Positions 9,463 to 29,142 of a stretch of 64,000 bases of DNA are shown here, one piece after another; the first letter of the stretch is position 1; every line of letters begins with the position of its first letter. Source of the DNA: Kiloniellaceae bacterium (lineage in GTDB: Bacteria > Pseudomonadota > Alphaproteobacteria > Kiloniellales > J153); assembly GCA_021776115.1 (NCBI GenBank), contig JAJFGN010000068.1:665-64664 (forward strand). The letters run 5' to 3'. A model generated the notes under the pieces. That model did no database searches. It was not told the DNA's origin and worked only from the letters and a program-made list of their open reading frames with translations. The translations under genes were made by a program, and so were the position numbers.

Positions 9463-9512
9463 GGCCGATTATTACTTGTCCGCATGTCAGGAAAATCGCT
9501 CAGCGCACTCGA

Positions 9513-10316: not shown

Positions 10317-10372
10317 TCAAATAGTCCTGGCGCTCTTTCAGGTTATCTTTAAGGGATGCGTATCTCTGTCTA

Positions 10373-11398
10373 TCAAAGCGGAATCTGGTTGCGGATATAC
10401 AGCCAGGGCGAGCGAAATACCTTGCGTCGTTTGCCATATTCTTCGCGGCGGGAAAAGAGAGTTTCGACAAGATTGAGCCAGTTACCAGTCATGCGCTCAG
10501 CCGTATTGGGGTAGGAGCCCATCCGCTCAGCGAGCGCATTGTAGTCCGACGTTAGTTGATTCAGCGCGGCCTCGAACGTTTCAGGACTAAACGGAACGCC
10601 AAAGCCGGCGCAGTACTCAGGCAGACAGCCGCTTTCACGGTAGAGAAGCGGCAGGCCGCACAGGGCTCCTTCATTCTGGTGATTCCCGCCTGGCTCATTT
10701 ATGGATGCCGTAATGTAGGCGTGATGGCTACGCAGCTCGTCAGCCAAGGCCTCCCCGGTCAGAGGTTCGATGTGACAGGCATGGCGAAACCGGAAGCCCT
10801 TCGGAAGGTTGCCGACATAGGTAAAGCGGATACGGTTTCCCCAGGAATCACTAGCCAGCATGGCATCGAGACGCTCATAGATGTCGAAGCCCTTCAACCG
10901 GTTGCCCCCCCAGTGATGCGTGACCAGCTTCAGGGGGTCATTGCCATTCCATGGCGCGAACCCCTGGGCATTGAACGTCCTGGTATCGGCGCCGTTCAGA
11001 ATAACGCTGCTCTCGGCCGGCGGTGCCGATTGCCAGGCCGCCAATTCGCGCAACCACGATCCGACGAACACAGTGTGGTCGGCACAATAGTTGGCGCGTG
11101 TGAGAAGCCTATTCATGTGGCGAGTATTCTTACGCTCGTCGCATTCGTTGACACGGTGGATGGCGACGGCCTTAGGATTCCGAAATGCCAAATACCGAAG
11201 GATAGCGCCAGCGCCGAATCTGAAAATGGGTAGACGGGAACGGGGGTCCATGAGGAGAATGATATCAATATCGCCATCGGCCAGATCGAACACGGCCGAA
11301 TGGCCCGCTTGCTCTAGCGCTTCCGTTAGGGCGGAAACGAAGCGGTTTCCACCACCCCAGGGGCCGGACTGAAGTCGGTAGCCGATGGCGACTTTCAT
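10373..11398 (-). CDS. Putative glycosyltransferase (GT-B-like)
   Basis: MKVAIGYRLQSGPWGGGNRFVSAL N-terminus and INEPGGNHQNEGALCGLPLLY, which resembles the GT-B donor-binding motif. Start moved to ATG 11398, just after the upstream stop at 11400-11402. Confidence 0.5.
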   Translation of the reverse strand: MKVAIGYRLQSGPWGGGNRFVSALTEALEQAGHSAVFDLADGDIDIILLMDPRSRLPIFRFGAGAILRYLAFRNPKAVAIHRVNECDERKNTRHMNRLLTRANYCADHTVFVGSWLRELAAWQSAPPAESSVILNGADTRTFNAQGFAPWNGNDPLKLVTHHWGGNRLKGFDIYERLDAMLASDSWGNRIRFTYVGNLPKGFRFRHACHIEPLTGEALADELRSHHAYITASINEPGGNHQNEGALCGLPLLYRESGCLPEYCAGFGVPFSPETFEAALNQLTSDYNALAERMGSYPNTAERMTGNWLNLVETLFSRREEYGKRRKVFRSPWLYIRNQIPL

Positions 11399-11399
11399 A

Positions 11400-12206
11400 C
11401 TACGGGGTTTCGCCATTCACGGGAATATTCCCAGGGGATTTCCTCAACACAAGAGTCTGCGTCGTGCAGCATCGCCACAGACCGAGCTTCTGCCGAAAAG
11501 GGTTGCGTCCTAGGAGCGTAGCGATATTGACCAAAAGTCTGGCGACCCGGCTGACCCACCGCTGATCGATGGTCACCAGTTCGTACCAAAAGATCGGATG
11601 CGTCTCGTACACATGGATGGGTGAGCCGAATATCTTGCTGCAAAGCTCGACGAACTCGCCCGTAAACCACTCTTGCACATGCATTGGATCCACGGGCTGG
11701 TGCGAAAACCGAATCGGAGTCGTGATTACGAGATGTCCCCCGGGGAGCAGGACCCGGCGAATCTCGGAGAGCATCGTGAGCGGCTCCTGAACGTGCTCGA
11801 TGACATCCGAGCAGACAACTGCGTCATAGCCGTTCTCCGGCTCGCCCGTGCCGTATCCGGCTACGCATTTGAATTGCCCTTCCAGGCCGCGCAGAGCAAA
11901 GGCCTTGCGCGCCAAGTCGATCGCCAACGAACTGGCATCCACCCCGGTGACGGATCGTCCCAGGTCTTGTCGAATCAGTCCGCTGAGTGCGCCGTCGCCG
12001 CACCCGACATCGAGAATCCGTGCCTCCGGCGCAAGAGCGAGATCCTTCAGGCAGTCCAGAGCCAGATCGTAACGGGCTCTGGTGTAGGCGTTCATTCGCA
12101 TCAGCCCGCCGGAATAGTCGGCCCAATGATAGGCACCCTTTTTTTCGTATTTCTCGAACTGGATCTCGCTCACCAGCCGCGGTCCCAAACTATGCATGGC
12201 GGACAC
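11400..12206 (-). CDS. Class I SAM-dependent methyltransferase
   Basis: RILDVGCGDGALSGLI, DAVVCSDVIEHV and LLPGGHLVITTP. Confidence 0.8.
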   Translation of the reverse strand: MSAMHSLGPRLVSEIQFEKYEKKGAYHWADYSGGLMRMNAYTRARYDLALDCLKDLALAPEARILDVGCGDGALSGLIRQDLGRSVTGVDASSLAIDLARKAFALRGLEGQFKCVAGYGTGEPENGYDAVVCSDVIEHVQEPLTMLSEIRRVLLPGGHLVITTPIRFSHQPVDPMHVQEWFTGEFVELCSKIFGSPIHVYETHPIFWYELVTIDQRWVSRVARLLVNIATLLGRNPFRQKLGLWRCCTTQTLVLRKSPGNIPVNGETP

Positions 12207-12332
12207 CGATAGAGTGTTTTATCGAGAGGCATCGCTTCGCCGCGCTTCGGTTCGAAGAATAGTGCTGCGCGTGCACACAAACCTCGCACCGACGAATTCC
12301 ACCCGACAAGACTGGCGACAAGGAAAGCCATG

Positions 12333-13445
12333 CTAGGAGCTGGCGGGATTGGCGTTGAGGAGATGTGCGACCCTTGTGGACAAGGCGTCGATGTTAAGTT
12401 CCCTTTCCACCGTTTGCCGTGCCTTGGCACCAAGTCGCGCACACGCCGCCGGGTCGCCGAGTGATCGCTCGATGGATGCCTGCAGGCCCGCTATGGACCC
12501 GGGCGGTACGAGCAGGCAATTCTCGTCATCGCGGATCAAGTCACGATCCCATATCCCCTTGATGTCACTGATGATAACCGCCTTGCCGCAGGCCATGGCC
12601 TGCAGGCAGGCACTTTGCCCGGACGGTTGAATCGTATCCAGGATTGGCAGCACGACAAACAATGCGCCTTGCATCAGGATCCGGATCCGCTCGTCGCTCA
12701 ACATTTGCCGATGCCAGTCGCCGGAAATGACAGCGACGTTGGTGGGAATGGATGCTGCCGGTATCCGCCGTTTGGTGACGATTGTGAGCCGGGGATAGTC
12801 CTGCTTCCAGGCGCGCAAGAGGGTCGCATAGTCTCGGTGCCGATCGTTGCCGATGCTCAGCACGTAAGGGCCGTCTGGCGCTGTCTCAGGTGCCGTGCCG
12901 GTGGGCTGCCAGAATCGCGTATCGACGCCAAACGGCAGATAGTCGATCGCTACGCCGGGCAGCCGATCCTTGAGGTATGCCACTTCCGGTCGACCGAGCG
13001 ACAGAACGGGCACATGACGGAACACGGTACGATACATCAGAAGGATGCGCTTCGGGGTCGCGAAGTCAACCAACCCCATGGCGACAAAGATCAAGCGTGG
13101 CCTGCACAGGCCGAGGCGTTTGAGCACGGCAAGGGCGATTCCGAAGGCATTCGTGGTGACAAAGATCGCATCGTATCTTTGCAGAAGTGCCCGTGCGTCG
13201 CGCCAAGCCAGTCGGTACGTTGCCCACAAGGGAAGGCCCAGGACGGCCCAGGCTAGGTGATTAACGGCACGCCATAGCCGAGAGGGGCTCTTGTCCAGAC
13301 CGAAATCGTTGTCTTGCCATAGATCGATATCGAGGCCCGACTCGCGCAGTTGCGGATAGCCGAAAAAGAATTCCGTCGGCCCGTCCGCGGTGTCATTCCC
13401 AAGCCGTTCTTTGCGGCCGGATTTGAAAAGGTAGGCAAACGTCAT
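12333..13445 (-). CDS. Glycosyltransferase, GT-B fold (GT4-like)
   Basis: QPSGQSACLQAMACGKAVIISDIKGIWD in the C-terminal half. Confidence 0.7.
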   Translation of the reverse strand: MTFAYLFKSGRKERLGNDTADGPTEFFFGYPQLRESGLDIDLWQDNDFGLDKSPSRLWRAVNHLAWAVLGLPLWATYRLAWRDARALLQRYDAIFVTTNAFGIALAVLKRLGLCRPRLIFVAMGLVDFATPKRILLMYRTVFRHVPVLSLGRPEVAYLKDRLPGVAIDYLPFGVDTRFWQPTGTAPETAPDGPYVLSIGNDRHRDYATLLRAWKQDYPRLTIVTKRRIPAASIPTNVAVISGDWHRQMLSDERIRILMQGALFVVLPILDTIQPSGQSACLQAMACGKAVIISDIKGIWDRDLIRDDENCLLVPPGSIAGLQASIERSLGDPAACARLGAKARQTVERELNIDALSTRVAHLLNANPASS

Positions 13446-13511
13446 GACCGGCTATACGGGTATCCGGCCGCGGCCATTTTTGAGCACCAAATTGCCGGTC
13501 TCGAAGGCGCA

Positions 13512-14096
13512 CTACCGCCGCGCCGCTGCCGCACAACGCGCCTCCACCTTCTCGCAGATGTAGTGATAGAGATTGATATGAACTTCTTGAATGCGCGGCG
13601 TTTGGCGCGACGGCACGGCGAGTAGGACGTGGCACAGCGGCGCCATGGCGCCGCCGCCCTCGCCGGTCAAACCGATGACGGTCATGCCCATATCGCGGGC
13701 GCGATGACAGGCTGCGACCACGTTGGCGGAATTTCCGCTAGTGCTGATGGCAAAGAGGACGCCTCCCGCCTCCCCATAGGCCTCAACCTGCCGGGCGAAG
13801 ACGGTTTCATATTGGTAGTCGTTGCTCCATGCCGTCAAAATGGCTGTGTTCGACCCGAGGTCGATGACCTTGAGGCCCGGCCGCTCCACCAAGAATCGCG
13901 CCACAAGCTCGCCGGCGATATGCATGGCATCCGTCGCCGACCCGCCATTGCCGCAGACAAGCACCGGCAAGCGGCGGTCAAGCGCCGGAGCCATGGCTTC
14001 GATAGCAGCCTCGACGCGTGCATCCAGCTCAGCCGACCGAGTCTTCTCCAGTAGCGTGGCGGACTGAGCGAGATAGTCGGAAAAACTTTCAGCCAT
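13512..14096 (-). CDS. SIS-domain sugar-phosphate isomerase, GmhA (sedoheptulose-7-P isomerase)-like
   Basis: PVLVCGNGGSATDAMHIAGELV and FAISTSGNSANV. Start moved to ATG 14096 (MAESFSDYL), giving about 194 aa, the typical GmhA size. Confidence 0.7.
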   Translation of the reverse strand: MAESFSDYLAQSATLLEKTRSAELDARVEAAIEAMAPALDRRLPVLVCGNGGSATDAMHIAGELVARFLVERPGLKVIDLGSNTAILTAWSNDYQYETVFARQVEAYGEAGGVLFAISTSGNSANVVAACHRARDMGMTVIGLTGEGGGAMAPLCHVLLAVPSRQTPRIQEVHINLYHYICEKVEARCAAAARR

Positions 14097-14107
14097 GGCT
14101 ATCGCCC

Positions 14108-15574
14108 CTAGTCTTGATGGGCGCATGCCGAGGCGCGCCCTAATGAAAAGCCGGAATCCGGAACCGGCTGTTCAAATGGCGCCCGTAACGATGCGCGCGC
14201 CCCTCGGGATGGTGGGGCGAGGCTCTCGACGAAATCGCACAGCCGTTCCGAATATGGTCGATCAAACGGCTCAACGAAAAAGCGACTGACTTCCTTTAGC
14301 CGCTTCGAAATCGAACCGTTACCCACATTCGACATAAGTTCGCGAAGAGTGGGGACAAAATCATCGCTGCCGTTGGCTTTCAAGAATTCTGGCATCTGGT
14401 ACATGTCTTCAAAATGAATCAGAGACGCCGCCCGTTGAAAATGGTCGGCGGACTCTTCTTCTGTTGGCAAGAAGCAAGCGACCGGCTTTCCGTGCAAGGC
14501 ACCCTCGATGATGATTGTTGACAACGGGGAGACCAAAGCGTCGATGGAACAAAGCAGGTCATGCGTCCGCTCATAGGGCGGCAGAGATTTTCCCTTGTGG
14601 CCCGCCTTCACCGCCTCGAGATAGCCACGCATGCTATTTTCCAGGCGAACATGGCGCCATGGATGATCGAGCAGACACTCTCCTCCCTTTCCGCCACCAC
14701 CCCATGGATGGGGGCGGTAGACAACCGCCATACTGGGGAGGCGGCCAGTGTCGATGGCGTCTTCGATCGTACAAAGGTGGCTGAACTCATTGCTCTCCTT
14801 GCTCGAACCGGCATACATAAGAACTGGAAGAGCGGGATCAATGTTGTGTTCGCGGCAGAATTCGGTTCGGGAAATGGTGGGTGGATTGCGAAAAAGGTCG
14901 AACTGCGCCGCACCAAACTTGATAGCCCGATCCGTGCTTATGCCAACGTATTCGACGGCATGCCGCTTGGTTTGCTCACCCCACACGAGCAGCCAGTCCG
15001 GGACTCCGACCATAGCTCGCTTTGTGCTCGGATTGTCCCAAGAATTCATAATCGTAACGAATGGAATGGTACGTTTGGACGCCGCTTCCATCAGATCGTT
15101 GATATAGACCCCCTCAAGCACGCACGGATGGATGAGCGCATCGGGTCGATATTTGTCAAGCAGCGCGGCCAAATCGTGATAGGGCCGTTCGGCAAGCTTA
15201 CGTTCAAGGAAATGTCGAACTAGAGTAAACACGCCGGGCAAACTGGCCACTCGGTACAGTGCTGCTGCCTTTGCCCCAATGGCGCCGGTATAAATCCTGC
15301 GAACGACCTTCCATTGCCGACCGGGCCGCCACCTGAGCTGGTCGATCTGGAACAGCGGCTTCCACAGGCGCTGGCGACCCTGATGGACCGTGAGGTGGGT
15401 ATAGTCCGCGCCACAGAGATCCAGTTGGCCGATCTTGACATCGCCCATCCGCTTGTATCCGGGCTCGGGGAACACAAACGTCACGTCGTGCTTGTTGATG
15501 AGATCGGCGAACACCAGGCTATGGAGGAAATGGCGGGCGACCACATCTACCTCAATGAAAATCAGGATCTTCAA
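14108..15574 (-). CDS. GT-B-like protein with HP motif; candidate CMP-ulosonate transferase
   Basis: VVYRPHPWGG followed about 60 aa later by SPLSTIIIEGALHGKPV. Start moved to TTG 15574, which forms a TTGA overlap with the upstream stop (15571-15573) and gives N-terminus (M)KILIFIEVD. Function is inferred, not recognised. Confidence 0.4.
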   Translation of the reverse strand: MKILIFIEVDVVARHFLHSLVFADLINKHDVTFVFPEPGYKRMGDVKIGQLDLCGADYTHLTVHQGRQRLWKPLFQIDQLRWRPGRQWKVVRRIYTGAIGAKAAALYRVASLPGVFTLVRHFLERKLAERPYHDLAALLDKYRPDALIHPCVLEGVYINDLMEAASKRTIPFVTIMNSWDNPSTKRAMVGVPDWLLVWGEQTKRHAVEYVGISTDRAIKFGAAQFDLFRNPPTISRTEFCREHNIDPALPVLMYAGSSKESNEFSHLCTIEDAIDTGRLPSMAVVYRPHPWGGGGKGGECLLDHPWRHVRLENSMRGYLEAVKAGHKGKSLPPYERTHDLLCSIDALVSPLSTIIIEGALHGKPVACFLPTEEESADHFQRAASLIHFEDMYQMPEFLKANGSDDFVPTLRELMSNVGNGSISKRLKEVSRFFVEPFDRPYSERLCDFVESLAPPSRGARASLRAPFEQPVPDSGFSLGRASACAHQD

Positions 15575-16299
15575 TTGTGGTCTCCACTCCGCATTCTTTG
15601 TTGGCGCGAAAGAATGAAATCCACCAGACTCAGATCCCATTCAGTATCGATGCTGACAAAATTCCCCTCCAGAACCAGCGCGCTCGTGCGACGCCCCTTG
15701 ATTGTTTTCTGTTCGAGAATGCATTCGCGAGTCATTGCGTAACAAATGCCGTTTCGGTGATACACCGGCGTTAATTGCTGGCGCGCTATGATATTTGCTC
15801 CCGCCGGGTCGTAGTATTCAAGCTTGCCATCGGCCACGGTCAGTTGCTTGAGTGGGTGTCCTTTCGAATCGGTTTCTGACACGCTCCATACGGCGTCCCA
15901 ATTTCCGTTGATGAGCATTTCGATGCACGCCGTCACATGGTCGGCTCGGCGCAAAGGCGAAGTGGGTTGCAGCAGGACGATGACGTCATATGTAGTGTCA
16001 TCGATGCGCTCCATCTCGATCAGCGTATGGGTCAGCACGTCGATATCGCCGATGCGGTCGCCGGATATTTCCGGAGGACGACGGAAGGGCGCGGCAAGAC
16101 CAGACTCTTCGGCGACACGCGCGATTTCCTCGTGGTCGGTCGAGACCACTGCCTGATCGATTATGGGAATCTGACGTATGAGGCACCCGACCCGCGCCAC
16201 CATCGGCATCCCGCAGACCGGTCGCAGGTTTTTCAAGGGGATCCCTTTGCTGCCACCACGCGCCGGCACCACGGCGAGGACACGCTTGCTTCCGATCAT
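15571..16299 (-). CDS. Acylneuraminate cytidylyltransferase family (CMP-ulosonic acid synthetase) #1
   Basis: VLAVVPARGGSKGIPLKNLRPVCGMPMVA and LLQPTSPLR. ATGA overlap at 16296-16299. Confidence 0.85.
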   Translation of the reverse strand: MIGSKRVLAVVPARGGSKGIPLKNLRPVCGMPMVARVGCLIRQIPIIDQAVVSTDHEEIARVAEESGLAAPFRRPPEISGDRIGDIDVLTHTLIEMERIDDTTYDVIVLLQPTSPLRRADHVTACIEMLINGNWDAVWSVSETDSKGHPLKQLTVADGKLEYYDPAGANIIARQQLTPVYHRNGICYAMTRECILEQKTIKGRRTSALVLEGNFVSIDTEWDLSLVDFILSRQQRMRSGDHN

Positions 16300-16976
16300 G
16301 TGCGGCTCTTGGCTTTCATGAACTTGGGCATCTGTCCTTCGCGATACCTCGAAATCTTCTCGATCGTTGCGGGAAGTCGCTTCAAGTCCTTTAGGATAGG
16401 AACTGGGCTGGCAATCCCGTCCGGGCAGTCAAATACCGGTACGAAATGACAGCCAATCTGATCGGCCGCCGCATAGTCGTCAGCGCCGTCGCCGACAACG
16501 ACGAGTTCCAGAGGCGGTATGCCTAAAAGGTTCTGTACACGCAGCAGGTTCTCGACTTTAGTGGCCGGGCCGCCGAAGATCCCGGCTAGTAACTGGCCGA
16601 TTTTGCGCGTCTGGACGATGGGCCGAAGCTCGGATTCTGGCGTTGCGGAATTGATGAAGAGCCGGCATTGCTGCGCGTGCAGCGCCTCCATCGCGCTTTC
16701 GGCTCCCGGCATATCGGGGCAAGCGGTGATGAGGGCCCTGCATCGATCGCTGTACTGCTGAGCCAGATTCTCATGCAACCCGGAAGCAAGGCCGGCCATC
16801 CTAGAGAATTGCTCGAACACGGCATAGCGGTCGCCGCGGTCGGGAGCGGAGAGGACTCGTTCCATGATATCCCGGCCATCCGGAATGGCGTCGACGACAG
16901 CGAAAAAGCTGTCCCGTTTGATGTGGTTTGAGTCAACTAAGGTGCCATCGAAGTCAAACACGACGCAGCGGATCAT
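16296..16976 (-). CDS. HAD-superfamily hydrolase (phosphatase candidate)
   Basis: MIRCVVFDFDGTLVDSN (DxDGT motif I) and VVVGDGADD. Start moved from 17114 to ATG 16976 (ATGA overlap with the upstream stop). Confidence 0.75.
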   Translation of the reverse strand: MIRCVVFDFDGTLVDSNHIKRDSFFAVVDAIPDGRDIMERVLSAPDRGDRYAVFEQFSRMAGLASGLHENLAQQYSDRCRALITACPDMPGAESAMEALHAQQCRLFINSATPESELRPIVQTRKIGQLLAGIFGGPATKVENLLRVQNLLGIPPLELVVVGDGADDYAAADQIGCHFVPVFDCPDGIASPVPILKDLKRLPATIEKISRYREGQMPKFMKAKSRT

Positions 16977-17845
16977 CGGGGCATTCCAGTGACGACGGCG
17001 ATAACCGCATCGCTGTGCCCTGCGGCTTCTAGGCTCTGCATATAGCCGAAATCGACCGGGGCAAAGATCCGCGTGTACTCTGCGTTGCCGCCGGGTTTTC
17101 CACACTGTAGCCAATTGAGATGGTTTTCCAAGCCATACCGCTGGTGTGTCATCATGGCTTCGATCCTAAAACCGTGCGAACGGAGCAATCGCTCCAGCGA
17201 AGCTTTCGAGTAGTAGTAGGGGTGCTGCTTCTGAAAGCAGTAGTCGGCATACGCCGGCACCTCATAGAGGCCAAGCAAAGGGTCGTCCAGAGAAGGCACT
17301 TCCATCACTAGATGTCCGTCCGGTGCCAGCAATGACGCACAAACGGAAAGAAAGGAAGCCGGCTCTACGATGTGCTCCAAGACATGGAAAAAGCAGATAA
17401 GGTCCCAACTCCCTACTGGCGCTTGCGAAAGGTTTTCATAGTGAGTCAACCCAGCGATTTGCTCGCGCAGCGACCGCCTTGTCGTATCCGGTTCGACGCA
17501 GGCTAAATCAAGGTGGGGATGCCGTTCGCGGATTAGCGCGAGAAAGCCACCATCGCCGGCGCCAATCTCGAGCACGCGGCCAACCGATGAGAACCATGCA
17601 GCCAGCTTTTCGTGCCGGCGCTCGTAAGTACCGATCTTCTTCTTGTATTCCTGGAGACCAAGCGCTGCGGCCCGGGGCTTGTACCGGCTGTAATCCGTTT
17701 CCGGAATGGGATGGAGGACGGCAAAGTCACCCGCACGATTGACGTATACTTCGGTGTCGGCATCATCGTAGATGCCACGGCGTAGCCGCACGAACTCCTC
17801 GTCACAGAACGGAGCCGGCAGGATGGATTCATCGAGTCCAGTCAT
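16973..17845 (-). CDS. Class I SAM-dependent methyltransferase
   Basis: RVLEIGAGDGGFLALI and DLICFFHVLEHI. Start moved from 18106 to ATG 17845 (ATGA overlap with the upstream stop). Confidence 0.75.
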   Translation of the reverse strand: MTGLDESILPAPFCDEEFVRLRRGIYDDADTEVYVNRAGDFAVLHPIPETDYSRYKPRAAALGLQEYKKKIGTYERRHEKLAAWFSSVGRVLEIGAGDGGFLALIRERHPHLDLACVEPDTTRRSLREQIAGLTHYENLSQAPVGSWDLICFFHVLEHIVEPASFLSVCASLLAPDGHLVMEVPSLDDPLLGLYEVPAYADYCFQKQHPYYYSKASLERLLRSHGFRIEAMMTHQRYGLENHLNWLQCGKPGGNAEYTRIFAPVDFGYMQSLEAAGHSDAVIAVVTGMPR

Positions 17846-19389
17846 GCCGTCGGCTTGCCTACCATGTCCGGCAACTGAAATCGCCCCCAGTGATCGACGA
17901 TGGTCTTGCGCTCCGCTCGGTCCAGCTTGTTGATCGTCGGGTCGCGATAGACCGAATCGTCGTTGAAATGCGTGGTGGAAACTTCCTCGAACACGCAACC
18001 GGATTCGCTCCAGAAGTGATGCCAGACGCCCGGCATGACAAGCTGCGTGTCGCCGGGTTGTAGGACCTTGTGACGGCCATCGAGATCGGTATGCAGCTCG
18101 CCCCACAGTATCTGAAAGGTTTCTTCCTTGCGCCTGTGGTAGTGGGAGGGATGGGCCTGATGGGGCAATTGAACCAGGATCTTCTTGCAGTACTCTCGGT
18201 TGATGCAGTTGATGATTACGACGCCCGTTTCCCTGAAATTGCGAACGCCGTAGTGATGGGAGTATTCGACTTCGAATTCACTACTAAGCGGGATCCGCGC
18301 CAGGTTTAGGAGCGCCTTGACTTCATGAACTGCATGCTTGAGCACCTGGACATCGGGCGTGGGCGGAATTTCCACGGCCTCTACCATGACCGGGCCGTCG
18401 GCCGGAATATCGACAAGCGCCGGGATGTCGGTTTTCCATTGACCGCTGGATAACTGTCCCACGGTGAACGGCATCGCGAAGTAAACGTGGTCGCGTGTGA
18501 TGGTAGTGCCTTTTTCTATGGGCTCACGAGCGAAAACACCGCGCTGTAGGCCGGTGATGGCATCGCGTTCTTCTGGTGCCGGCGGCAGCCGGTCGTATGA
18601 CCCACACAGGACATGCGCCTTCTGCCATGCGCCAATCCACGCGTCGACTTGTCCGGGAGTGGAGGAATAGGCGTTGAGCGTGATCTTGTCCGTCGTCAGG
18701 CCGATGTGCCGCTCGAACATCTGTGCGCCTTTGGCAGTGGCAATCATCACCGGGCCGGTATCCGCCGGGTTCTCATGCGTGGACCACCCAATGGTGCAGT
18801 CCGGATAACGCTCTCGGAACGCTGTTACATTGCTGAGATTGCATTGCTTGTCCGGCGTCGGATAGATCGACACACAATGCATGATCGCGTGGTCGACCCC
18901 ACGATGATCGAAGAAGCTTTTCAGATCGTCGATCTGGTGTAATTCCAGTCCCCCCGTTGAGAAAATAACCGGTTTGCCCGTGACTGCGATCGCTTCGAGT
19001 AGAGGCCAGTCAATCGCCGAGCAACTGGCCACTTTGAGGACGTCAAAACCCATGTCGACGACGACATCGACGGAGTCTTCGTCAAACGGTGTACAGACAG
19101 CGACAAGTCCTTGCGCACGAACCTCGTTCAAAAGGGTCTGAAATGCGGCGCGATCGAGTTGCGTACCGAGAAACCGAGGAATGTGTTTGTTGGCGCTGCC
19201 GACCTTGTGGCTCGGGTGCACGAAGCTGTCCAGTTGGCGGAACTGGAATTTTATCGCGCCACGCACCTGTCGCACCTTTAAGACGGCGCCGTGTTGTCTG
19301 ATGATGTTCAGTCCGTGTTCGACATCGCCTTGGTGATTGTTAGCAAGGTCGAGGACGAATAGATCCTTGAAGTCGAAGCGCGATTCCAT
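17842..19389 (-). CDS. NeuB-family PEP-condensing ulosonic acid synthase fused to a C-terminal D-lyxose-isomerase-like cupin (no SAF domain)
   Basis: N-terminal half: FVLDLANNHQGD, AIKFQ, CTPFDEDSVDVVVDMGFDVLKVASCS, GKPVIFSTGG and MHCVSIYPTP (NeuB/PseI-like TIM barrel). C-terminal approx 130 aa: LPHQAHPSHYHRRKEETFQILWGEL...PGVWHHF (cupin metal-site pattern). Start taken at ATG 19389 (MESRFDFKDLFVLD). Confidence 0.7.
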   Translation of the reverse strand: MESRFDFKDLFVLDLANNHQGDVEHGLNIIRQHGAVLKVRQVRGAIKFQFRQLDSFVHPSHKVGSANKHIPRFLGTQLDRAAFQTLLNEVRAQGLVAVCTPFDEDSVDVVVDMGFDVLKVASCSAIDWPLLEAIAVTGKPVIFSTGGLELHQIDDLKSFFDHRGVDHAIMHCVSIYPTPDKQCNLSNVTAFRERYPDCTIGWSTHENPADTGPVMIATAKGAQMFERHIGLTTDKITLNAYSSTPGQVDAWIGAWQKAHVLCGSYDRLPPAPEERDAITGLQRGVFAREPIEKGTTITRDHVYFAMPFTVGQLSSGQWKTDIPALVDIPADGPVMVEAVEIPPTPDVQVLKHAVHEVKALLNLARIPLSSEFEVEYSHHYGVRNFRETGVVIINCINREYCKKILVQLPHQAHPSHYHRRKEETFQILWGELHTDLDGRHKVLQPGDTQLVMPGVWHHFWSESGCVFEEVSTTHFNDDSVYRDPTINKLDRAERKTIVDHWGRFQLPDMVGKPTA

Positions 19390-19417
19390 ATGGACGGCCC
19401 TTGTGCGTGACGATGGC

Positions 19418-20512
19418 TTACCGGGTGCTAAGCGCATCTGGGGTGTATCCCTTGGCATAGTCGATTCTTATCGACCGGCGCTCTTGGTGGGAAAGGTGTA
19501 TCGCCGCGACCACCAGCATAGTATCCAATCCGCGTTCAACACCGATGTGCGGAGGCAGGTTCTCCAAGGCCAGGGCATGTTCAATGTGCCGCAACTCCCG
19601 GATGAAGTCCTGTGGGCGAGTCTTTTCGATCAGTGTCGTGGATGATTCCGCGCCACCGACTTGATGGATGACCGCGTCGCACCCAGATTTGAAGCCGCAG
19701 TGCCACTCGGCAAAACCTTGATCGCCTTGGATGCGGGCCCATTTGCGAGGCGGTTGCGTGACCACATCCTGAACGATGCGCCCGGTCAGGCCGGATTGTG
19801 TCGTTACATTGGCAAGGCACAACCGATCGTAATCGACCGTTCCGTCTCGCACAAAGTCGAGTGTGGCAACAACATCGATAATTCTTCCGCCGCCGCACGC
19901 ATGGGCGAAATGCTGCCAAAGGTTAATGGCGTGGGAGTGCTCACCGCTGGCGCCGCCGCCGCGATTCGAATATCCAAGATACGAATCCTGCGGGCCATCG
20001 AGCCAGGGGTGAGCGTTGAATATTCCGCCCCAGTACTCACGGAACTCTACGTCAATGGTGGAGACCGTGCCGACAGCGCCTTCCGTCAGGATCGTGGAAG
20101 TTTGCTCCACAGCTTTGCCAACGACGTGATCGTACCCGGTGAATACGGCAACCCCAAGATCTCGGCTTAGATCATAGAGTTTCTGCGCGTCGGCCAAGTC
20201 TGGCGTGCACAGTGGCTTCTCGATCAGCACCGCCCTAGGTTTTTCCGCCAATGCGGCTAGGCCGAGGGGGATGTGGCTGTCCGGCGGCGTGCCGACGCAA
20301 ATCAGGTCATATTCTCCGGTCGGGGCTTTCGAGGCCTCGAACAGCCGAATGTCGTCATCCCACGCCGCATAGCGGTTTGGATAAATCTGGTTTCTCGTGC
20401 GCTCGAGGGCGGCAGTGTCCACATCGCACAGATCCACACTCCAGCCAAGCTGGCGTGCGGCGTTAGATAGATGATTGCCGATCGAGCCGGCGCCAATGAC
20501 TTTAACTCTCAT
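19418..20512 (-). CDS. Gfo/Idh/MocA-family NAD(P)-dependent sugar oxidoreductase
   Basis: MRVKVIGAGSIGNHL Rossmann N-terminus and the family-typical AVLIEKPLC (EKP) motif. Confidence 0.7.
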   Translation of the reverse strand: MRVKVIGAGSIGNHLSNAARQLGWSVDLCDVDTAALERTRNQIYPNRYAAWDDDIRLFEASKAPTGEYDLICVGTPPDSHIPLGLAALAEKPRAVLIEKPLCTPDLADAQKLYDLSRDLGVAVFTGYDHVVGKAVEQTSTILTEGAVGTVSTIDVEFREYWGGIFNAHPWLDGPQDSYLGYSNRGGGASGEHSHAINLWQHFAHACGGGRIIDVVATLDFVRDGTVDYDRLCLANVTTQSGLTGRIVQDVVTQPPRKWARIQGDQGFAEWHCGFKSGCDAVIHQVGGAESSTTLIEKTRPQDFIRELRHIEHALALENLPPHIGVERGLDTMLVVAAIHLSHQERRSIRIDYAKGYTPDALSTR

Positions 20513-20594: not shown

Positions 20595-21338
20595 TCAGCT
20601 GCTTTCCCAGAACGCCCGTGCTTTGCGCAGATCGTCCTCTGTACCAAACTCCAGCAGTGCACTAACCTCATGTACGTTGGTAGGCTCTTCTTTCATATAG
20701 CGGGTGACGATATCAGTCGTAATGTCGCCAAGTGTTCCCTTCCGCGCAAGTGAATACGCCAATTCCTTCAGTAACAGGGTATTGGAAAAGACGAAAAATC
20801 CAACCACGCCATTGTCTATCTGGGCAATAGGTTGTGGCGTTTCCAATGCGGTAATTTTTTGGGCGACACCGTTCTTCGTTTCGACTGAGTGGCGATAGGT
20901 TCCCAACACGCCTTTGGTCGCCAGTGTCGCAACGAATATTGAGCTGTCGGTGACTATAGGATTGCTCAACATGATCAGGTCGCAAAAAGAAACGACTGTT
21001 CCATAGCGACTGTCGATATGATCGAGAGCGTAAAGGAGAGAAAAAGCATTGTTGCGGATATCGTTTATGGATTCGCGAGAGAATTCAATCTTTTGATTTG
21101 GGTAGCGCCCGGCAATATAACTTTCCAACAAATCTCCATGCCATCCCGTTCCGATTACTATCTTATGTGATATCAGCAGGAATTTACTAATCAGGAGATC
21201 GATTGCGCGCTGCGAGCCAATCTTGGACAGGGCCTTCGGAATGTGTTCTGAGGCGCTCCCCATCCGGGTGCTCAAACCTCCCGCAAGGATGATGACATTG
21301 TAGCTCCGGCCTTTGTCGGAGATGAACTGACCAAGCAT
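20595..21338 (-). CDS. Sugar-phosphate nucleotidyltransferase (NTP_transferase fold)
   Basis: YNVIILAGGLSTRMGSASEHIPKALSKIG. The gene is markedly lower in G+C than its flanks. Confidence 0.7.
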   Translation of the reverse strand: MLGQFISDKGRSYNVIILAGGLSTRMGSASEHIPKALSKIGSQRAIDLLISKFLLISHKIVIGTGWHGDLLESYIAGRYPNQKIEFSRESINDIRNNAFSLLYALDHIDSRYGTVVSFCDLIMLSNPIVTDSSIFVATLATKGVLGTYRHSVETKNGVAQKITALETPQPIAQIDNGVVGFFVFSNTLLLKELAYSLARKGTLGDITTDIVTRYMKEEPTNVHEVSALLEFGTEDDLRKARAFWESS

Positions 21339-21347: not shown

Positions 21348-23063
21348 CTAATTCAGCAAATCTGAGTGCTTGCGAAGAAATGCTGCCGACACCAGGCCGG
21401 TTGAGCCATAGCCCACTTGGTATGGCGCAAACATGCTGTGAAACCGCCTCTGCAATTCCTCGTCCTCGCTGGTTTTCTGATAACGTCCGTCCAGTCGCTC
21501 GACCAGCTCACGGGTTGCGTCAATCAGATCTTCCGCGGTGTTATGAACCAGCCTAAAGCGGCCCCTCTCACAATCCTTAGAGAATGAGAAAAGATGATTG
21601 AAATAGAGCCATTCCGAGAAAGAGAGATATCGACCCTCATCTTGATCAAATGCCAATTTCGGCACAAAGATGCTCTGCGTTGTCTTGTTCGAAGAATATA
21701 TGGTGTTTCGGATAAGGAAGAGATCTGAAACTACGGTCGGTCGATCAAATGCGGCCGCCCCCGAAAACAGGCCAGTATCTCCCGCTAAGAGAAATCTGTA
21801 GCGCGAGAATAGATAGACGTCAAGTTCGTCGCTGCGCCCGGTTTGTGCGTAGTCAAACACCAATGGGTGGCAATCGCCAGGCAAGGGTTCGGTAACGCTC
21901 AAACCCATCCGTACGACTTGATAGCCTCGGTCGGCCCAGTAATGGGCGAAGCCTACGTACGGAAGGATCTGCGGGCAACGGTGCTCGGTATCGTCCCGCA
22001 CGCCCGCTGATGGGCCAGATCCCATCACCGTGCCGTAAAATTTATAGTAGGCCATGTCGCGCAAGCCGAACCCAATGATCGGTTTCTCTGGGTCAATGCC
22101 CATGTGAGCCAACTGCTTCTCCGCCGCGCGCGCGGCGCGATCCGGAAAGCAAAGAACCGGCGGGCCGCCCATATAGTCATCCTTGATGCGACGATAGTCC
22201 GTGCTGAGACTGAGATTGCGTCCGACCCGCTCAATAACGGAAAACCCGATGCGGATGAGCTTTCTTGATAATGTCCCGGTCGTTCTCACCAGGCGACAGT
22301 GTCTGGAATACAAACGCATCAACGTTTCGTTCGGGTAGCCGTCGAAATACAGAGCGATCAATAAGGGCGGTTTCTGGCCGCCAGCACTGTCCCGCAATCG
22401 CCGGAGCATGGGGTCGATGCGGTCTACGATGTCGGCCAGGCGGGTAAAGTTTCCCAACGACGCAACGCGAATATCGCGCCGCCTATATCGTAACCTCACC
22501 AAGGCGAGAAAGCAGATGGCGATAAGGTCGAATAAGCGGAAACAAATCTTAGATCCGATCATTCTTGCCCAGAGACGTGCACGGACACCCGCAGGCAGTC
22601 GTAGGTTTGCGCTGAACAAGCGGGTCAGAGGAAAGTGGCCAATCACCTTCAATGGCACCTTGGACAGGATCCCGACCGGATCGTCACGAATCACCGTTTC
22701 CGACAACAGCGTGCGAATATTGGTTTGGTCGATGGCGGTCCCATTAGAGATATCATCAAACGCAGCAATCAATTGTAGCATGGCGGGCGGATCGGGATCG
22801 GCGTCCAATATGTCGCGGACAGCCTGCAGGGCCTCTTTGGGTCGGCCCAGGGCCGCAAGAGTAAGGCACTGTTCCAACCGCCACGGATAAGTTGGGCTTG
22901 TAATTTTCTGGCAACGCTCCAGCGTTCGCAGTGATATGTCCGGCCGGCCAATCACCCTTAAATCACGCGCCGTAGCTATCAGTGACTTTGCGTCATGCAA
23001 ATTCTCCGCTCGCCGTGCCAGGCTCCGCGCATCGCGTACCTTCTCTGGTCTCAATTCAGTCAT
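21348..23063 (-). CDS. Hypothetical protein: N-terminal helical/TPR-like region plus a large C-terminal domain (possible glycosyltransferase)
   Basis: 571 aa. The N-terminal approx 110 aa is a helical repeat-like region (...LEQCLTLAALGRPKEALQAVRDILDADPDPPAMLQLIAAF...). The C-terminal part loosely recalls an uncharacterised putative-GT family. No catalytic motif was identified by eye. Confidence 0.3.
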   Translation of the reverse strand: MTELRPEKVRDARSLARRAENLHDAKSLIATARDLRVIGRPDISLRTLERCQKITSPTYPWRLEQCLTLAALGRPKEALQAVRDILDADPDPPAMLQLIAAFDDISNGTAIDQTNIRTLLSETVIRDDPVGILSKVPLKVIGHFPLTRLFSANLRLPAGVRARLWARMIGSKICFRLFDLIAICFLALVRLRYRRRDIRVASLGNFTRLADIVDRIDPMLRRLRDSAGGQKPPLLIALYFDGYPNETLMRLYSRHCRLVRTTGTLSRKLIRIGFSVIERVGRNLSLSTDYRRIKDDYMGGPPVLCFPDRAARAAEKQLAHMGIDPEKPIIGFGLRDMAYYKFYGTVMGSGPSAGVRDDTEHRCPQILPYVGFAHYWADRGYQVVRMGLSVTEPLPGDCHPLVFDYAQTGRSDELDVYLFSRYRFLLAGDTGLFSGAAAFDRPTVVSDLFLIRNTIYSSNKTTQSIFVPKLAFDQDEGRYLSFSEWLYFNHLFSFSKDCERGRFRLVHNTAEDLIDATRELVERLDGRYQKTSEDEELQRRFHSMFAPYQVGYGSTGLVSAAFLRKHSDLLN

Positions 23064-23107: not shown

Positions 23108-23992
23108 TCACAACTCCCGAGACGGAGTTGTCACGTGCAGAGGGATGAATAGCTCGGACGGAAAGGCAGGCTTGCTACATGGTATGCCAGTCAGCTCGTC
23201 AATAAAGACGATTTTACCTTCCGCCCACTCAAGCATCATGCGGTAATAGAGTGTCTCTGAGTACTCGGTGAGAAGGAACCGCGCTAAAATCTCGTTGAAG
23301 GTTCTTCTGCCAAGGTCCTTTTTCATCAACCGCTGAAAACGTACCGATGGATCAACACACAGGAAGAAGATATTTTTCAGCTGAGTAAGCAAGAAGGGCG
23401 GCCCAAAAATCGCACCCTCGTAGAGGAGGGTGCCGGTGGCTGGAATATCTAGATCGGCGCCATATTCCCCCGTCGACCGATCGTAGGGTCCGGATACTTT
23501 GATCGGTATTCCTGCTTGCAGGCTCTCCAGGTCGCTTAAGATAGCGCCCCAGTCCCACCAATTGAACTGGTTCGCCGCATCCTTATAACTGTCGACCGAA
23601 CGCATATGTTTTTGGGAGAGCAGCAACTTCCGCTCCTCGGAGGTGCCGATGAATGCATAATCGGCGGAATAGACGCTGCATCGTATTTCCCGAGCAAGCC
23701 AATTGGCAGTATAAGACTTACCAGCGCCGGCGGGGCCCGTAATTCCGTAGGTGCCTGGGCCGCTACCGAGAATTAAGTTTGTTATGACATCGCGGCGGGG
23801 GGCTGTTTCCGATGACAACGTCTTGTTTGCTCCTGTGCAAGAATTTACCGAGAGTAGGTTTCGGCACAAATTTCGCGGAAATTTGCCAAGAATAGAAATG
23901 CGAACAATGGCCTGTTCTTGAAAAAAACCACTCCAGCTAAGGCACGGAATGGTTCTCAGAATACATATCTTTGGTACCCAGTACCTCCGCAA
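23108..23992 (-). CDS. P-loop NTPase, uridine-kinase/PRK-like small-molecule kinase candidate
   Basis: Walker A YGITGPAGAGKSYTANWLA. The first approx 60 residues of the ORF look non-protein-like, so the true start is probably downstream of 23992. Confidence 0.45.
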   Translation of the reverse strand: MRRYWVPKICILRTIPCLSWSGFFQEQAIVRISILGKFPRNLCRNLLSVNSCTGANKTLSSETAPRRDVITNLILGSGPGTYGITGPAGAGKSYTANWLAREIRCSVYSADYAFIGTSEERKLLLSQKHMRSVDSYKDAANQFNWWDWGAILSDLESLQAGIPIKVSGPYDRSTGEYGADLDIPATGTLLYEGAIFGPPFLLTQLKNIFFLCVDPSVRFQRLMKKDLGRRTFNEILARFLLTEYSETLYYRMMLEWAEGKIVFIDELTGIPCSKPAFPSELFIPLHVTTPSREL

Positions 23993-24008: not shown

Positions 24009-24848
24009 TTGTCTAGCGCATTCGGTCTCGTTCTTCGGGTTATTCGGAAACACAGTGGTAAGCCGATCGGCCGTGCAATTCAGCGCCTCTCGTACGCCAT
24101 TTACCGTGCAAGCAACAATCCTGGCTATCATTTTGCAGATAACGGTGAACTGCATACTCTTCAAGCATTTAGTGCTGTTCAAGGTCACAAGACTGTATTG
24201 GATGTTGGCGCAAACCACGGCGAATGGTCTAGGGCTTGCCTTAATCTATTGGGCAACAGGGCAAAGGTGTACGCATTTGAGCCAAGCAATTCATCTTTCG
24301 AAAAGCTACGGCTAAACACGAAGGACCTGGGAAACATTTTCCCGTTTCAGATGGGCTTGTCGGCCACCGATTGCGAATTGGACATTCTGGTCAGCGACAG
24401 CGTTCCGCAAAAATCCAGCGTTGAGGCGGAATCCGCGAAGGCAACGTCTCCGCAAATTGATGACTACCGCAAAGAAAGGCAACGCTTTGTCCGCGGGGAA
24501 GTTTTTTGCCGGGACCAGGGCTTAGAGCACATTCATTTTCTCAAGGTTGATACCGAAGGCCACGACCTTCAGGTGTTGGCCGGTTTCGAACGCATGATCG
24601 CCAACGGCAGTGTCGATGTCATTCAGTTTGAGTACAATAGATTGAATATTTTTACCAAATACACGCTCCATGATTTTTACAATATGTTGAATGAAAATTT
24701 TACCCAGTGCGGGTATTCGATTGGGCGCATATATCCAAGTGGCGTTCTTTTCAAGTCATACAGCGTATACGACGAAAATTTCGTCGACGGGAACTTCCTT
24801 GCTGTGCGGACCGCGTTGCCGGACCTTGTCGCGACGTTCAGAATTTAG
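24009..24848 (+). CDS. FkbM-family methyltransferase
   Basis: VLDVGANHGEWS, FEPSNSSFEKL and LKVDTEGHDLQVLAGF. One of only two plus-strand genes inside the island, with low G+C (one 60-nt line counted at 35%). Confidence 0.85.
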   Translation: MSSAFGLVLRVIRKHSGKPIGRAIQRLSYAIYRASNNPGYHFADNGELHTLQAFSAVQGHKTVLDVGANHGEWSRACLNLLGNRAKVYAFEPSNSSFEKLRLNTKDLGNIFPFQMGLSATDCELDILVSDSVPQKSSVEAESAKATSPQIDDYRKERQRFVRGEVFCRDQGLEHIHFLKVDTEGHDLQVLAGFERMIANGSVDVIQFEYNRLNIFTKYTLHDFYNMLNENFTQCGYSIGRIYPSGVLFKSYSVYDENFVDGNFLAVRTALPDLVATFRI

Positions 24849-24914
24849 GGGCCCGCGGGCAAATTTCTTCACCTACGACTGGATGCTGTTGCATAGCCAC
24901 CTTTCGCGGCCGCG

Positions 24915-25505
24915 TTAGGTTTGTTCGCCGATCGACTCAGCGTCGGGCCTTTCGGCGCTCAGTTCACCGAGTGGACCGAGGCGGAACCGATGGAACGAGC
25001 CCGCCTCTATCGCCGGTAACCGGTCCGCCTCAGCGCCAGGGAAAGCTAGGGCCAAGGCAGCCTGAATTACGCCTTTATGAGTTACAGCAATGATCGGTTT
25101 CCCGTTCGCCGCCAGTTCGGCCAGCCAGGGTTTGATCCGGCCTTGGACACTGTGGCCACTCTCTCCGCCCGGCGGACAAAATTCAATGTTGGGATAGTCA
25201 ATTCCCGGGATATCCCGTCCCAGTGACCGACGGATATCCGTCAACGCTATTCCTTCCCAATCGCCCCAGTCGGCTTCGATTAGGCGGTCCTCGATGAGGG
25301 GACTTGCGCCCAGGAGGCGTGCGGTCTCCTGGGCGCGCCCAAGAGGACTGGAGACCCATATCGCCTCAGCCATATCGGCTGTAGGCCGCACGGTCTTGGC
25401 CTGACGCCGACCTCGTTCGCTTAGCGGCACGTCCGTCCGCCCCTGTAACCGACCTTCCTCATTCCATGCCGTCCGGAAATGCCGAATGAGAGTCAGGTTA
25501 ATCAT
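24915..25505 (-). CDS. Histidine phosphatase family protein (phosphoglycerate-mutase-like)
   Basis: MINLTLIRHFRTAWNEEGRLQGRTDVPLSERGRRQA (RH catalytic motif) and IIAVTHKGVI. Confidence 0.8.
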   Translation of the reverse strand: MINLTLIRHFRTAWNEEGRLQGRTDVPLSERGRRQAKTVRPTADMAEAIWVSSPLGRAQETARLLGASPLIEDRLIEADWGDWEGIALTDIRRSLGRDIPGIDYPNIEFCPPGGESGHSVQGRIKPWLAELAANGKPIIAVTHKGVIQAALALAFPGAEADRLPAIEAGSFHRFRLGPLGELSAERPDAESIGEQT

Positions 25506-25524
25506 AAGCCGGCATGTCGAGCGT

Positions 25525-26229
25525 CTATTTGAAACGAATCGCGGCTTGAAGCTCGCTGAAGGCGAAGTACTCGAACTCGTCCTCGCTAAAGACTTCCATC
25601 AGGGCGCGGTATTCATGACGTCGCCAATTGGGGTAGCCATACAGCTCATCAAACAATATGACCGTTCCACTCACACAGCGATCTTTAACAGTCTCAAGGG
25701 CAAACTTTGTCGGCGTGTAGGTATCCATATCACAGTGTATGAATGAAATTGGTTCATCAAGATGGGTGTCCAAGAAATCCTGTAAGGTCTCCTGCACCCA
25801 ACCTTTAATCAACTGAACGTTGCCTGGCACATCGGGCAACTTTCCGCCGGTGCTAAAGTTTGTTTTGAACACACCAACCTGCCCGGTCCAGTCTTCTTCC
25901 AGGCCCTCGAATGAATCAAAGCCGAAAACAGTTCTGTTGTCGTCGCGGTCAGTAAGATTTTTGGCGAATAGCCTAGTTGAAGACCCCGTATAAACGCCAA
26001 ACTCAAGGATCAGACCATCTGGATTGATGTCGCGAAATGCGAAGGTCCTTATCTTGGAGATTGAACGGAATAGGGCGATATTATCCAGCTTGGATTCCAG
26101 GAAGTCGGCACTGTCCTGCCGCGCCCTTTCGTTAAGAATCTCCAGAATTGTCAACTCTCTGCCGGTGGTCAGAGATTCATGCCAAAGCTTCCCGATACGC
26201 CGGACAAACTTTCTAGCTACTTCCTTCAT
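25525..26229 (-). CDS. TylF/macrocin-O-methyltransferase-like SAM methyltransferase
   Basis: ILEFGVYTGSSTRLFA, FGFDSFEGL and IHCDMDTYTPT. Confidence 0.65.
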   Translation of the reverse strand: MKEVARKFVRRIGKLWHESLTTGRELTILEILNERARQDSADFLESKLDNIALFRSISKIRTFAFRDINPDGLILEFGVYTGSSTRLFAKNLTDRDDNRTVFGFDSFEGLEEDWTGQVGVFKTNFSTGGKLPDVPGNVQLIKGWVQETLQDFLDTHLDEPISFIHCDMDTYTPTKFALETVKDRCVSGTVILFDELYGYPNWRRHEYRALMEVFSEDEFEYFAFSELQAAIRFK

Positions 26230-26276
26230 GTCACCAACGCAAAGCTGTCTGAATGTTGCAGGTTCGCATCGCTATG

Positions 26277-28091: not shown

Positions 28092-28255
28092 TGAGTATTA
28101 AGTCCAGAAATGACGCCTGAGCCACCCAAACAATTTAGGGCGCCAATATAGATGTAAGGCGAAATGCACAGAAGCAGTGTTGTAACAAGAAACGGTGGTT
28201 CACTAGAGCTGGTCGCTCAAAAAACAGCAATATGAAATTCCGGAAGGCCGTGGGA

Positions 28256-29104: not shown

Positions 29105-29142
29105 TAGATCTGCGCTGAATTATCGGATGCGATAAGCGATGG

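Follow-up and report, generated by a model that had tools for sequence, protein, structure and literature searches.

To our knowledge, the genes for non-amino ulosonic acids have largely been assigned in Bacteroides and a few capsule loci. Surveys indicate that ulosonic acids of the ketodeoxynonulosonic acid (Kdn) and neuraminic acid (Neu) types, as well as unassigned ones, are frequent in environmental bacteria (PMC8157484; bioRxiv 10.64898/2026.04.20.719630). Here, we describe a gene in a 64,000-nucleotide stretch of DNA from a Kiloniellaceae bacterium (GenBank assembly GCA_021776115.1, contig JAJFGN010000068.1, positions 665 to 64,664; hereafter, the window) that encodes a NeuB-type synthase fused in one frame with a D-lyxose-isomerase-like cupin. 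Judging from its domains and its conserved neighbours, we lean towards the view that this fusion is the bifunctional entry enzyme of a four-gene pathway to a cytidine monophosphate (CMP)-activated, non-amino 3-deoxy-2-ulosonic acid.

Several described systems share part of this design. NeuB, PseI and LegI consist of a TIM barrel with an SAF (antifreeze-like) cap, and the two metal histidines and the phosphoenolpyruvate (PEP)-binding Lys, Gln, Ser and Thr residues are conserved between them and the window protein. Identity to these synthases is only about 20%, however, and the window protein differs in its extra C-terminal isomerase domain, in having Met, Ile or Phe in its family for the Arg314 of Neisseria meningitidis NeuB (NmNeuB), and in a gene cassette without amino-sugar genes. 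Wang et al. (2008, cited in PMC9000132) reportedly described the Kdn-9-phosphate (Kdn-9-P) route of Bacteroides thetaiotaomicron. Like the cassette of the window, that route and the animal N-acetylneuraminic acid 9-phosphate (Neu5Ac-9-P) and Kdn-9-P routes are established to combine a synthase, a HAD phosphatase and a CMP-synthetase with no amino-sugar steps, whereas their synthases lack both the fused isomerase and the linked Gfo-type oxidoreductase. In B. thetaiotaomicron, the phosphatase belongs to the KdsC-like HAD type, in contrast to the HAD-IA-like enzyme of the window. The pathway to 3-deoxy-D-manno-octulosonate (Kdo; KdsD-KdsA-KdsC-KdsB) likewise joins a ketose-phosphate isomerase, a PEP-dependent condensation, a HAD phosphatase and CMP activation, but it uses an SIS isomerase in place of a cupin and a DAHP_synth_1 synthase in place of NeuB, neither of them homologous to its counterpart in the window, and it constitutes a separate pathway family. 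By analogy, the fusion may work like a merged KdsD and KdsA, or like a phosphomannose isomerase merged with a Kdn-9-P synthase, while being homologous to neither isomerase. An analogous precedent for the fusion itself is found in Serratia marcescens KL1/KL2, where the capsule NeuB has an added COG1082 sugar-phosphate isomerase/epimerase domain and the strains make KDN (PMC9000132). There, too, a NeuB-family synthase is fused to an isomerase-type domain in a locus yielding a non-amino nonulosonic acid, but the extra domain, of putative function, is a xylose-isomerase-like TIM barrel and not a cupin.

The fusion gene of the window and its three domains are as follows.

17842–19389, minus strand: whole fusion gene (NeuB, SAF and D-lyxose-isomerase-like cupin), 515 amino acids, stop codon within the coordinates; placed from the list of open reading frames (ORFs), the start context and homologous ORFs.
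18601–19365, minus strand: NeuB-type TIM-barrel synthase domain, residues ~9–263; placed from Pfam NeuB, an AlphaFold2 (AF2) model, Foldseek and invariant residues.
18370–18543, minus strand: retained SAF/antifreeze-like cap domain, residues ~283–340; placed from alignments to 3g8r, 1vli and 4ipi/4ipj and from structural superposition.
17872–18357, minus strand: complete D-lyxose-isomerase-like domain, residues ~345–506, with N-terminal helix, cupin barrel and conserved basic C-terminal tail; placed from Pfam, phmmer and Foldseek.

The longest minus-strand ORF at this position (17842–19458) is uninterrupted, and homologues support a start at the ATG at 19389: they all align from the Met encoded there, the TAA of the upstream gene occupies 19420–19418, and a purine-rich stretch precedes the ATG. 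Homologous ORFs without interruption, 506–536 amino acids long, numbered 81 and came from about 80 species, which bears out the single intact frame of 515 residues that an initial annotation, made from the sequence alone, had read. Invariance is counted below over these 81 ORFs, and a separate alignment of 40 sequences, in which both active sites are invariant as well, served for the NeuB-type residues and for a family profile. Both halves of the fusion are real, with matches far beyond chance.

The initial annotation recognised NeuB motifs in the N-terminal part, and these are indeed present. Pfam NeuB (PF03102) matches residues 45–237 with 128 bits against a cut-off of 22 (E=4e-37), and the NeuB-type residues K47, Q49, T100, D103, K119, S122, S144, H205, E226 and H228 are invariant in the 81 sequences. 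We take their NmNeuB counterparts to be K53, Q55, K129, S132, S154, H215, E234 and H236, comprising the metal-binding His pair and PEP/catalytic residues. The same annotation proposed that the cupin had replaced the SAF domain, and this headline was wrong: the SAF fold is kept at residues ~283–340, and the isomerase-like domain is appended after it. In the search with NeuB, SAF and cupin profiles that the annotation had suggested, NeuB, Cupin_2 and Lyx_isomer were significant and the Pfam SAF match was weak (residues 283–307, E=0.15, sub-threshold), although close relatives carry a significant one. Residues 8–340 align to Protein Data Bank (PDB) entry 3g8r end to end without large gaps (E=2.6e-85), and the 40-member family profile aligns to NmNeuB (5–337) and Bacillus subtilis SpsE (15–340); 1vli was also aligned through SAF. 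The AF2 monomer model (pLDDT 89.5, pTM 0.78) comprises a barrel (10–262), a small beta domain (284–340), a helix (346–363) and a beta barrel (373–500). In Foldseek, its first ~340 residues superpose on entire NeuB, PseI and 3g8r chains with template modelling (TM) scores to the target of 0.80–0.94; the NeuB and PseI superpositions include SAF and cover 344–356 aligned columns (TM to target 0.80–0.84). Because the alignments run through residue ~340 and the superposition covers whole NeuB chains, SAF is retained, and the architecture is NeuB plus SAF plus a complete lyxose-isomerase-like protein.

The only loss within SAF concerns R314, the arginine that is essential in NmNeuB with N-acetylmannosamine and whose mutants are 4ipi (R314A) and 4ipj (R314K). 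It aligns to Met306, a position held by Met in 60, Ile in 12 and Phe in 9 of the 81 sequences. This loss, together with the lack of amino-sugar genes in the cassette, argues for a non-amino substrate. The protein also falls far short of the NCBIfam equivalog cut-offs for NeuB (TIGR03569, 119 bits against 399.65) and PseI (TIGR03586, 114 against 340.25).

The C-terminal domain was correctly recognised as a cupin of D-lyxose isomerase type but measures ~170 residues, not the ~130 first estimated, since it begins with the N-terminal helix of these isomerases (346–363). Pfam Cupin_2 matches residues 409–463 (E=2e-10), and Lyx_isomer (PF07385) reaches 32.4 bits against a gathering cut-off of 20.8 over part of the profile; the NCBIfam equivalog for Gram-negative lyxose isomerase is not reached (23 against 350). 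Aligned with phmmer, the solved D-lyxose isomerases 7nzo and 2y0o match the domain over its whole length. In Foldseek, the last ~167 residues superpose on 2y0o and 7nzo/p/q (E ~1e-10, TM 0.64–0.68, root-mean-square deviation (rmsd) 2.6–2.7, probability 1.00, 23–26% identity), and D-lyxose isomerases are the only cupins among the top 50 matches to the AF2 model.

In the Thermofilum enzyme TsLI, the Mn ligands are H75, H77, E88 and H143, and K86 is the proposed enediol stabiliser (PMC8378251). By phmmer alignment, these correspond to H416, H418, E423, H457 and K421 of the window protein, all invariant in the 81 sequences, and the motif H-x-H-x-x-K-x-E ... H noted initially is matched exactly at H416, H418, K421, E423 and H457. 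B. subtilis YdaE (2y0o) and TsLI (7nzo) thus share with the window cupin the identical Mn ligands and catalytic Lys, as well as the motifs R-Y-C-x-K and S-x-x-x-D-x-x-Y/F-x-D-P. They are free-standing, however, whereas the window cupin is fused, has a shorter loop between HxH and KxE, carries K403 where they have Glu, and ends in an added basic tail (R494, K495, H500, W501 and R503) that runs beyond the isomerase-aligned region; K403 and these tail residues are invariant in the family and absent from the solved isomerases. The basic residues among them (K403, R494, K495 and R503) could form a phosphate site. The substrate of the window cupin, unlike those of YdaE and TsLI, is possibly phosphorylated.

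The immediate neighbours of the fusion gene are listed below; their recurrence was examined in 48 loci with at least 8 kb on both sides, and 12 gene families were compared over 47 loci.

19418–20512, minus strand: Gfo/Idh/MocA NAD(P) oxidoreductase, directly upstream in the same operon (Pfam GFO_IDH_MocA and C-terminal domain).
16973–17845, minus strand: predicted class I S-adenosylmethionine (SAM) methyltransferase (Pfam Methyltransf_23, E=2e-24), start overlapping the fusion stop.
16296–16976, minus strand: predicted HAD-IA-type sugar-phosphate phosphatase (Pfam Hydrolase/HAD_2; best PDB match TM_1254, a phosphorylated-carbohydrate phosphatase).
15571–16299, minus strand: predicted CMP-ulosonic-acid synthetase (cytidylyltransferase; Pfam CTP_transf_3, E=1e-20; best NCBIfam matches PseF and KdsB, below cut-offs).
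14108–15640, minus strand: 510-residue protein with no Pfam match, a candidate for transferring the activated acid (weak NCBIfam match to the BFO_1060 family of glycosyltransferases, E=1e-10, below cut-off).

The oxidoreductase, which the scheme of the initial annotation had left out, was found in 48/48 loci, always directly upstream and in the same orientation (median identity 58%). The HAD phosphatase is found directly downstream in 39 of the 48 (median identity 37%), followed by the CTP_transf_3 cytidylyltransferase in 45 (median identity 64%), so that the synthase is linked to a phosphatase and a cytidylyltransferase as in phosphorylated ulosonate routes. Of about 48 loci, 13 to 24 have a methyltransferase in the cassette; an unassigned protein of about 460–510 residues is likewise less frequent than the three core genes, and homologues of the 510-residue protein follow the cytidylyltransferase in 14–15 of about 48 loci, as well as in L001 and L003. 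The same cassette order was seen in Thalassospira, in a Geobacteraceae metagenome-assembled genome (MAG) and in a Rhodospirillales MAG. In the comparison of 12 families over 47 loci, the conserved core contains no aminotransferase, N-acetyltransferase or 2-epimerase; a class I/II aminotransferase recurs in only 16 loci, about 6 kb upstream of the fusion gene.

Two motifs of active family members, GxGxxG and EKP, can be read in the translation of the cassette oxidoreductase. Its best NCBIfam and PDB matches are weak and point in different directions: xylose 1-dehydrogenase, levoglucosan dehydrogenase and UDP-GlcNAc 3-dehydrogenase, besides uncharacterised entries. PtmF, the oxidoreductase of legionaminic-acid clusters, is a possible parallel, judged from a table entry (PMC4481668).

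Other features of these loci may be mentioned here. The fusion TGA overlaps the methyltransferase ATG (ATGA, window 17842–17845), which suggests translational coupling. Proteins similar to the 510-residue one, of 440–590 residues and without assignment, follow the cytidylyltransferase in other loci. An 826-residue protein with an ELM1-like (PF06258) domain recurs together with the class I/II aminotransferase 5–6 kb upstream of the cassette in L029 (3641–7389) and about 13–16 similar loci, mostly Nitrospira, and this pair could serve a lineage-specific amino derivative or belong to a neighbouring operon. Radical SAM/SPASM genes lie near the cassette in Thalassospira (L001 14523–15509) and the Rhodospirillales MAG (L003 14591–15595), and the window has a radical SAM gene at 32640–34127 (minus strand), about 13 kb from the cassette. 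Immediately upstream of the cassette in the Geobacteraceae MAG (L002 1–5787) are a 2-epimerase, a NeuB+SAF synthase, a hexapeptide acetyltransferase, a CBS-nucleotidyltransferase and a cytidylyltransferase; this locus appears to encode two separate CMP-ulosonic-acid pathways.

A sister subfamily is represented by PDB 3g8r, the closest solved relative of the window NeuB+SAF part (TM 0.93, rmsd 1.9). This structural-genomics entry, named ‘probable spore coat polysaccharide biosynthesis protein E’, covers the first ~350 residues of a Chromobacterium violaceum protein (P0121) whose native form has 495 residues with NeuB, SAF and Cupin_2. Thus, 3g8r is a truncated fusion, and its name and apparent domain make-up are misleading; no functional study of the protein was found in the literature. 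The subfamily differs from the window protein (43–46% identity) in its genomic context and in having Gln in place of H416. Its clusters, at the positions below, contain a nucleotidyltransferase, a nucleoside diphosphate (NDP)-hexose 4,6-dehydratase, a DegT/E1-like enzyme, the fusion, a thiamine pyrophosphate (TPP) enzyme, a C-methyltransferase-like gene and radical SAM enzymes.

L084/L085 (Chromobacterium), 6845–18238: sister-subfamily cluster.
L086 (Azoarcus sp. KH32C), 2806–19966: sister-subfamily cluster, next to flagellin.

More speculatively, the sister enzymes may supply a keto acid as donor for YerE-like branching or chain extension of an NDP-deoxyhexose.

In the pathway that we favour for the window cassette, the D-lyxose-isomerase-like cupin would bind a divalent metal at H416, H418, E423 and H457 and, with K421 stabilising the enediol, would convert a ketose of central metabolism, most likely a ketose phosphate such as fructose-6-phosphate (fructose-6-P), into an aldose of manno/lyxo configuration. 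The SAF-capped NeuB barrel would condense this aldose irreversibly with PEP and pull the unfavourable isomerisation forward, the HAD phosphatase would take off the terminal phosphate, and the cytidylyltransferase would form the CMP-sugar. The methyltransferase and the Gfo/Idh/MocA oxidoreductase would tailor the acid at some step, and the acid would then be transferred into a surface polysaccharide. The preferred sequence of intermediates would be fructose-6-P, mannose-6-P, Kdn-9-P, Kdn and CMP-Kdn.

As for the order of these steps, aldose-ketose isomerases work between a C1 aldehyde and a C2 ketone and need a C1 aldehyde or hydroxymethyl group, whereas the product of NeuB has a C1 carboxylate; the cupin can therefore act only before the synthase. 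Enzymes of the D-lyxose isomerase type yield C2/C3-cis (manno/lyxo) aldoses, the configuration that NeuB-type synthases use, and the aldose-ketose equilibrium favours the ketose. We infer phosphorylated substrates because the phosphatase and the cytidylyltransferase would complete a route formally like those to Kdo and through Kdn-9-P or Neu5Ac-9-P. The idea in the initial annotation, that the isomerase supplies a non-acetylated aldose for a Kdn-like acid, was thus reasonable, and its contextual support is now stronger: the chemistry, the invariance of both active sites and the neighbouring genes all speak for it. Its choice of free fructose and mannose fared less well, since the conserved HAD phosphatase favours phosphorylated substrates.

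The cassette probably yields an activated acidic sugar that is non-amino, possibly Kdn-like, and destined for the cell surface. Kdn or O-methyl-Kdn is our leading guess, with C8 (from xylulose-5-P) or C10 (from sedoheptulose-7-P) acids as alternatives, and the recurrent methyltransferase suggests O-methylated products. Tentatively, the cassette might make an undescribed CMP-activated ulosonic acid: an oxidised, epimerised or O-methylated relative of Kdn, or a C8 or C10 homologue. Sinorhizobium fredii is known to contain 5-O-methyl-Kdn (reference cited in PMC9000132). A link to the Sinorhizobium K-antigen (5-O-methyl-Kdn) loci was not made, as a tblastn search of 72,556 plasmids returned ordinary NeuB-type genes only and no full-length fusion. 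The CMP-linked C10 acids of Magnetospirillum (SugarBase preprint) were also considered as the product; they are diacetamido compounds, and nothing ties them to the cassette.

Some points weigh against this pathway. Characterised D-lyxose isomerases act on free sugars and not on sugar phosphates, and most bacteria already make mannose-6-P, so that a dedicated isomerase for Kdn is not obviously needed. The oxidoreductase, although universally linked, receives no defined step, which is the main gap in the model. The C. violaceum-type subfamily of 495 residues has no HAD or CMP-transferase gene nearby; from this different context and from its Gln at the H416 position, it follows that the fused enzyme is not tied to one pathway.

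In one rival reading, the same coupling operates on free sugars, the HAD phosphatase acting first to turn a ketose phosphate into the ketose, the cupin isomerising that ketose in the manner of ordinary D-lyxose isomerases and NeuB condensing the free aldose. The closest solved relatives of the cupin use free D-lyxose or D-mannose, bacterial NeuB, PseI and LegI are established to use unphosphorylated aldoses, and the clusters of the 495-residue subfamily do without a phosphatase. We nevertheless judge this order unlikely, if still a serious contender: free pools of fructose, xylulose or sedoheptulose would be unusual as biosynthetic intermediates, a phosphatase gene after the synthase gene fits the precedents of Kdn-9-P, Neu5Ac-9-P and Kdo-8-P, and the possible phosphate site of K403, R494, K495 and R503 is absent from the aligned isomerases.

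Alternatively, the cupin may not feed the synthase at all but act as a separate tailoring enzyme (e.g., an epimerase) or as a sugar-sensing or oligomerisation module, with the aldose made elsewhere, possibly by the Gfo oxidoreductase. That enzyme is linked more tightly (48/48) than the phosphatase and is without an assigned role; moreover, the sister subfamily sits in an NDP-deoxyhexose/TPP-enzyme cluster, a setting in which cupins are commonly ketoisomerases or epimerases, and has Gln for one metal histidine. In the window subfamily, however, the full catalytic set of D-lyxose isomerases is invariant in the 81 sequences, the likeness is to whole D-lyxose isomerases and not to RmlC/FdtA-type cupins, and the fusion is fixed across several phyla, which makes an uncoupled cupin somewhat less probable still.

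An ordinary N-acetylneuraminate, legionaminate or pseudaminate synthase with an accessory cupin is very improbable. Annotation pipelines do use the name N-acetylneuraminate synthase, and the Geobacteraceae locus adjoins a legionaminate/neuraminate (Leg/Neu)-type cluster, but that locus has its own separate canonical NeuB+SAF and a second cytidylyltransferase; the bit scores lie far under the NeuB (119 versus 400) and PseI (114 versus 340) equivalog cut-offs, R314 is not conserved, and the cassette has no amino-sugar genes. Finally, a joining of two genes by sequencing or assembly error, for which no supporting point was found, is already refuted, because 81 independent uninterrupted ORFs (506–536 residues) and more than 100 database clusters share the architecture.

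The fusion is not rare. When one genome was scanned per species, at least 568 genomes contained a relative, which confirms a real fusion. The best 80 relatives are full-length and come from Rhodospirillales, Kiloniellaceae, Thalassospira, Niveispirillum, Hyphomicrobiales, Caulobacter, many Nitrospira, Desulfuromonadales and Geobacteraceae, with single carriers in Cyanobacteria, Verrucomicrobia, Spirochaetales, Elusimicrobia and Chloroflexaceae; the window is 90% identical to a Kiloniellaceae MAG (L004), and a look-up of the exact sequence of the window protein gave no match. The protein database holds thousands of relatives, of which the best 120 all have 505–533 residues and the same three Pfam families. 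With the cupin domain alone as query, 951 clusters at 50% identity are retrieved, and the best matches mostly lie at the C-terminus of proteins of about 500 residues. Pipelines name these proteins ‘N-acetylneuraminate synthase’, and some JGI entries ‘sialic acid synthase SpsE/D-lyxose ketol-isomerase’. The NeuB-SAF-isomerase architecture, of which the initial annotation knew no description for ulosonic-acid synthesis, is therefore not new as a database object, being common, machine-annotated and partly in the PDB; literature searches on NeuB or sialic acid synthase with cupin or D-lyxose gave no paper on the architecture and no functional study.

The cassette of the window lies in a long minus-strand polysaccharide locus with glycosyltransferases, about 10 methyltransferases, two GDP-mannose-4,6-dehydratase-like genes and an ABC exporter. 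SAM methyltransferases (~10) are dense at 2496–12206 and 24009–30174, together with several GT1/GT2/GT4 genes, and the exporter is at 26277–28091; this content points to a polysaccharide with heavy O-methylation and ABC-dependent export. A TPR repeat plus TIGR04372-family glycosyltransferase domain (E=1e-36) make up a 571-residue protein at 21348–23063 (minus strand), between the nucleotidyltransferase listed below and an unassigned 294-residue protein. Four further genes look like an NDP-heptose branch.

13512–14126, minus strand: GmhA-like sedoheptulose-7-P isomerase (186 bits).
20595–21338, minus strand: HddC/MurU-like nucleotidyltransferase.
23108–23992, minus strand: weakly kinase-like protein.
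24915–25505, minus strand: histidine phosphatase.

The GmhA-like and HddC-like genes were considered as parts of the pathway, which would then lead to a heptose-derived C10 acid, and were rejected, as they accompany the fusion in 0/48 other loci; NDP-heptose-type genes overall do so in 0–1/48. We regard the GmhA-like and HddC-like genes as serving a different sugar of that polysaccharide.

As a conserved and self-contained unit present in hundreds of species, among them cultured Thalassospira, Niveispirillum, Kiloniella and Nitrospira, the cassette offers a candidate pathway that can be tested directly. It is common in Nitrospira, Rhodospirillales and Desulfuromonadales; should it indeed make an undescribed ulosonic acid, much of the ‘Kdn-type’ and unassigned ulosonic-acid signal reported in environmental bacteria might have this unrecognised source. 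The fusion would also represent a clear case of an unfavourable aldose-ketose equilibrium driven by irreversible PEP condensation within one polypeptide, and it would be useful for the enzymatic synthesis of Kdn-type acids from cheap ketoses.

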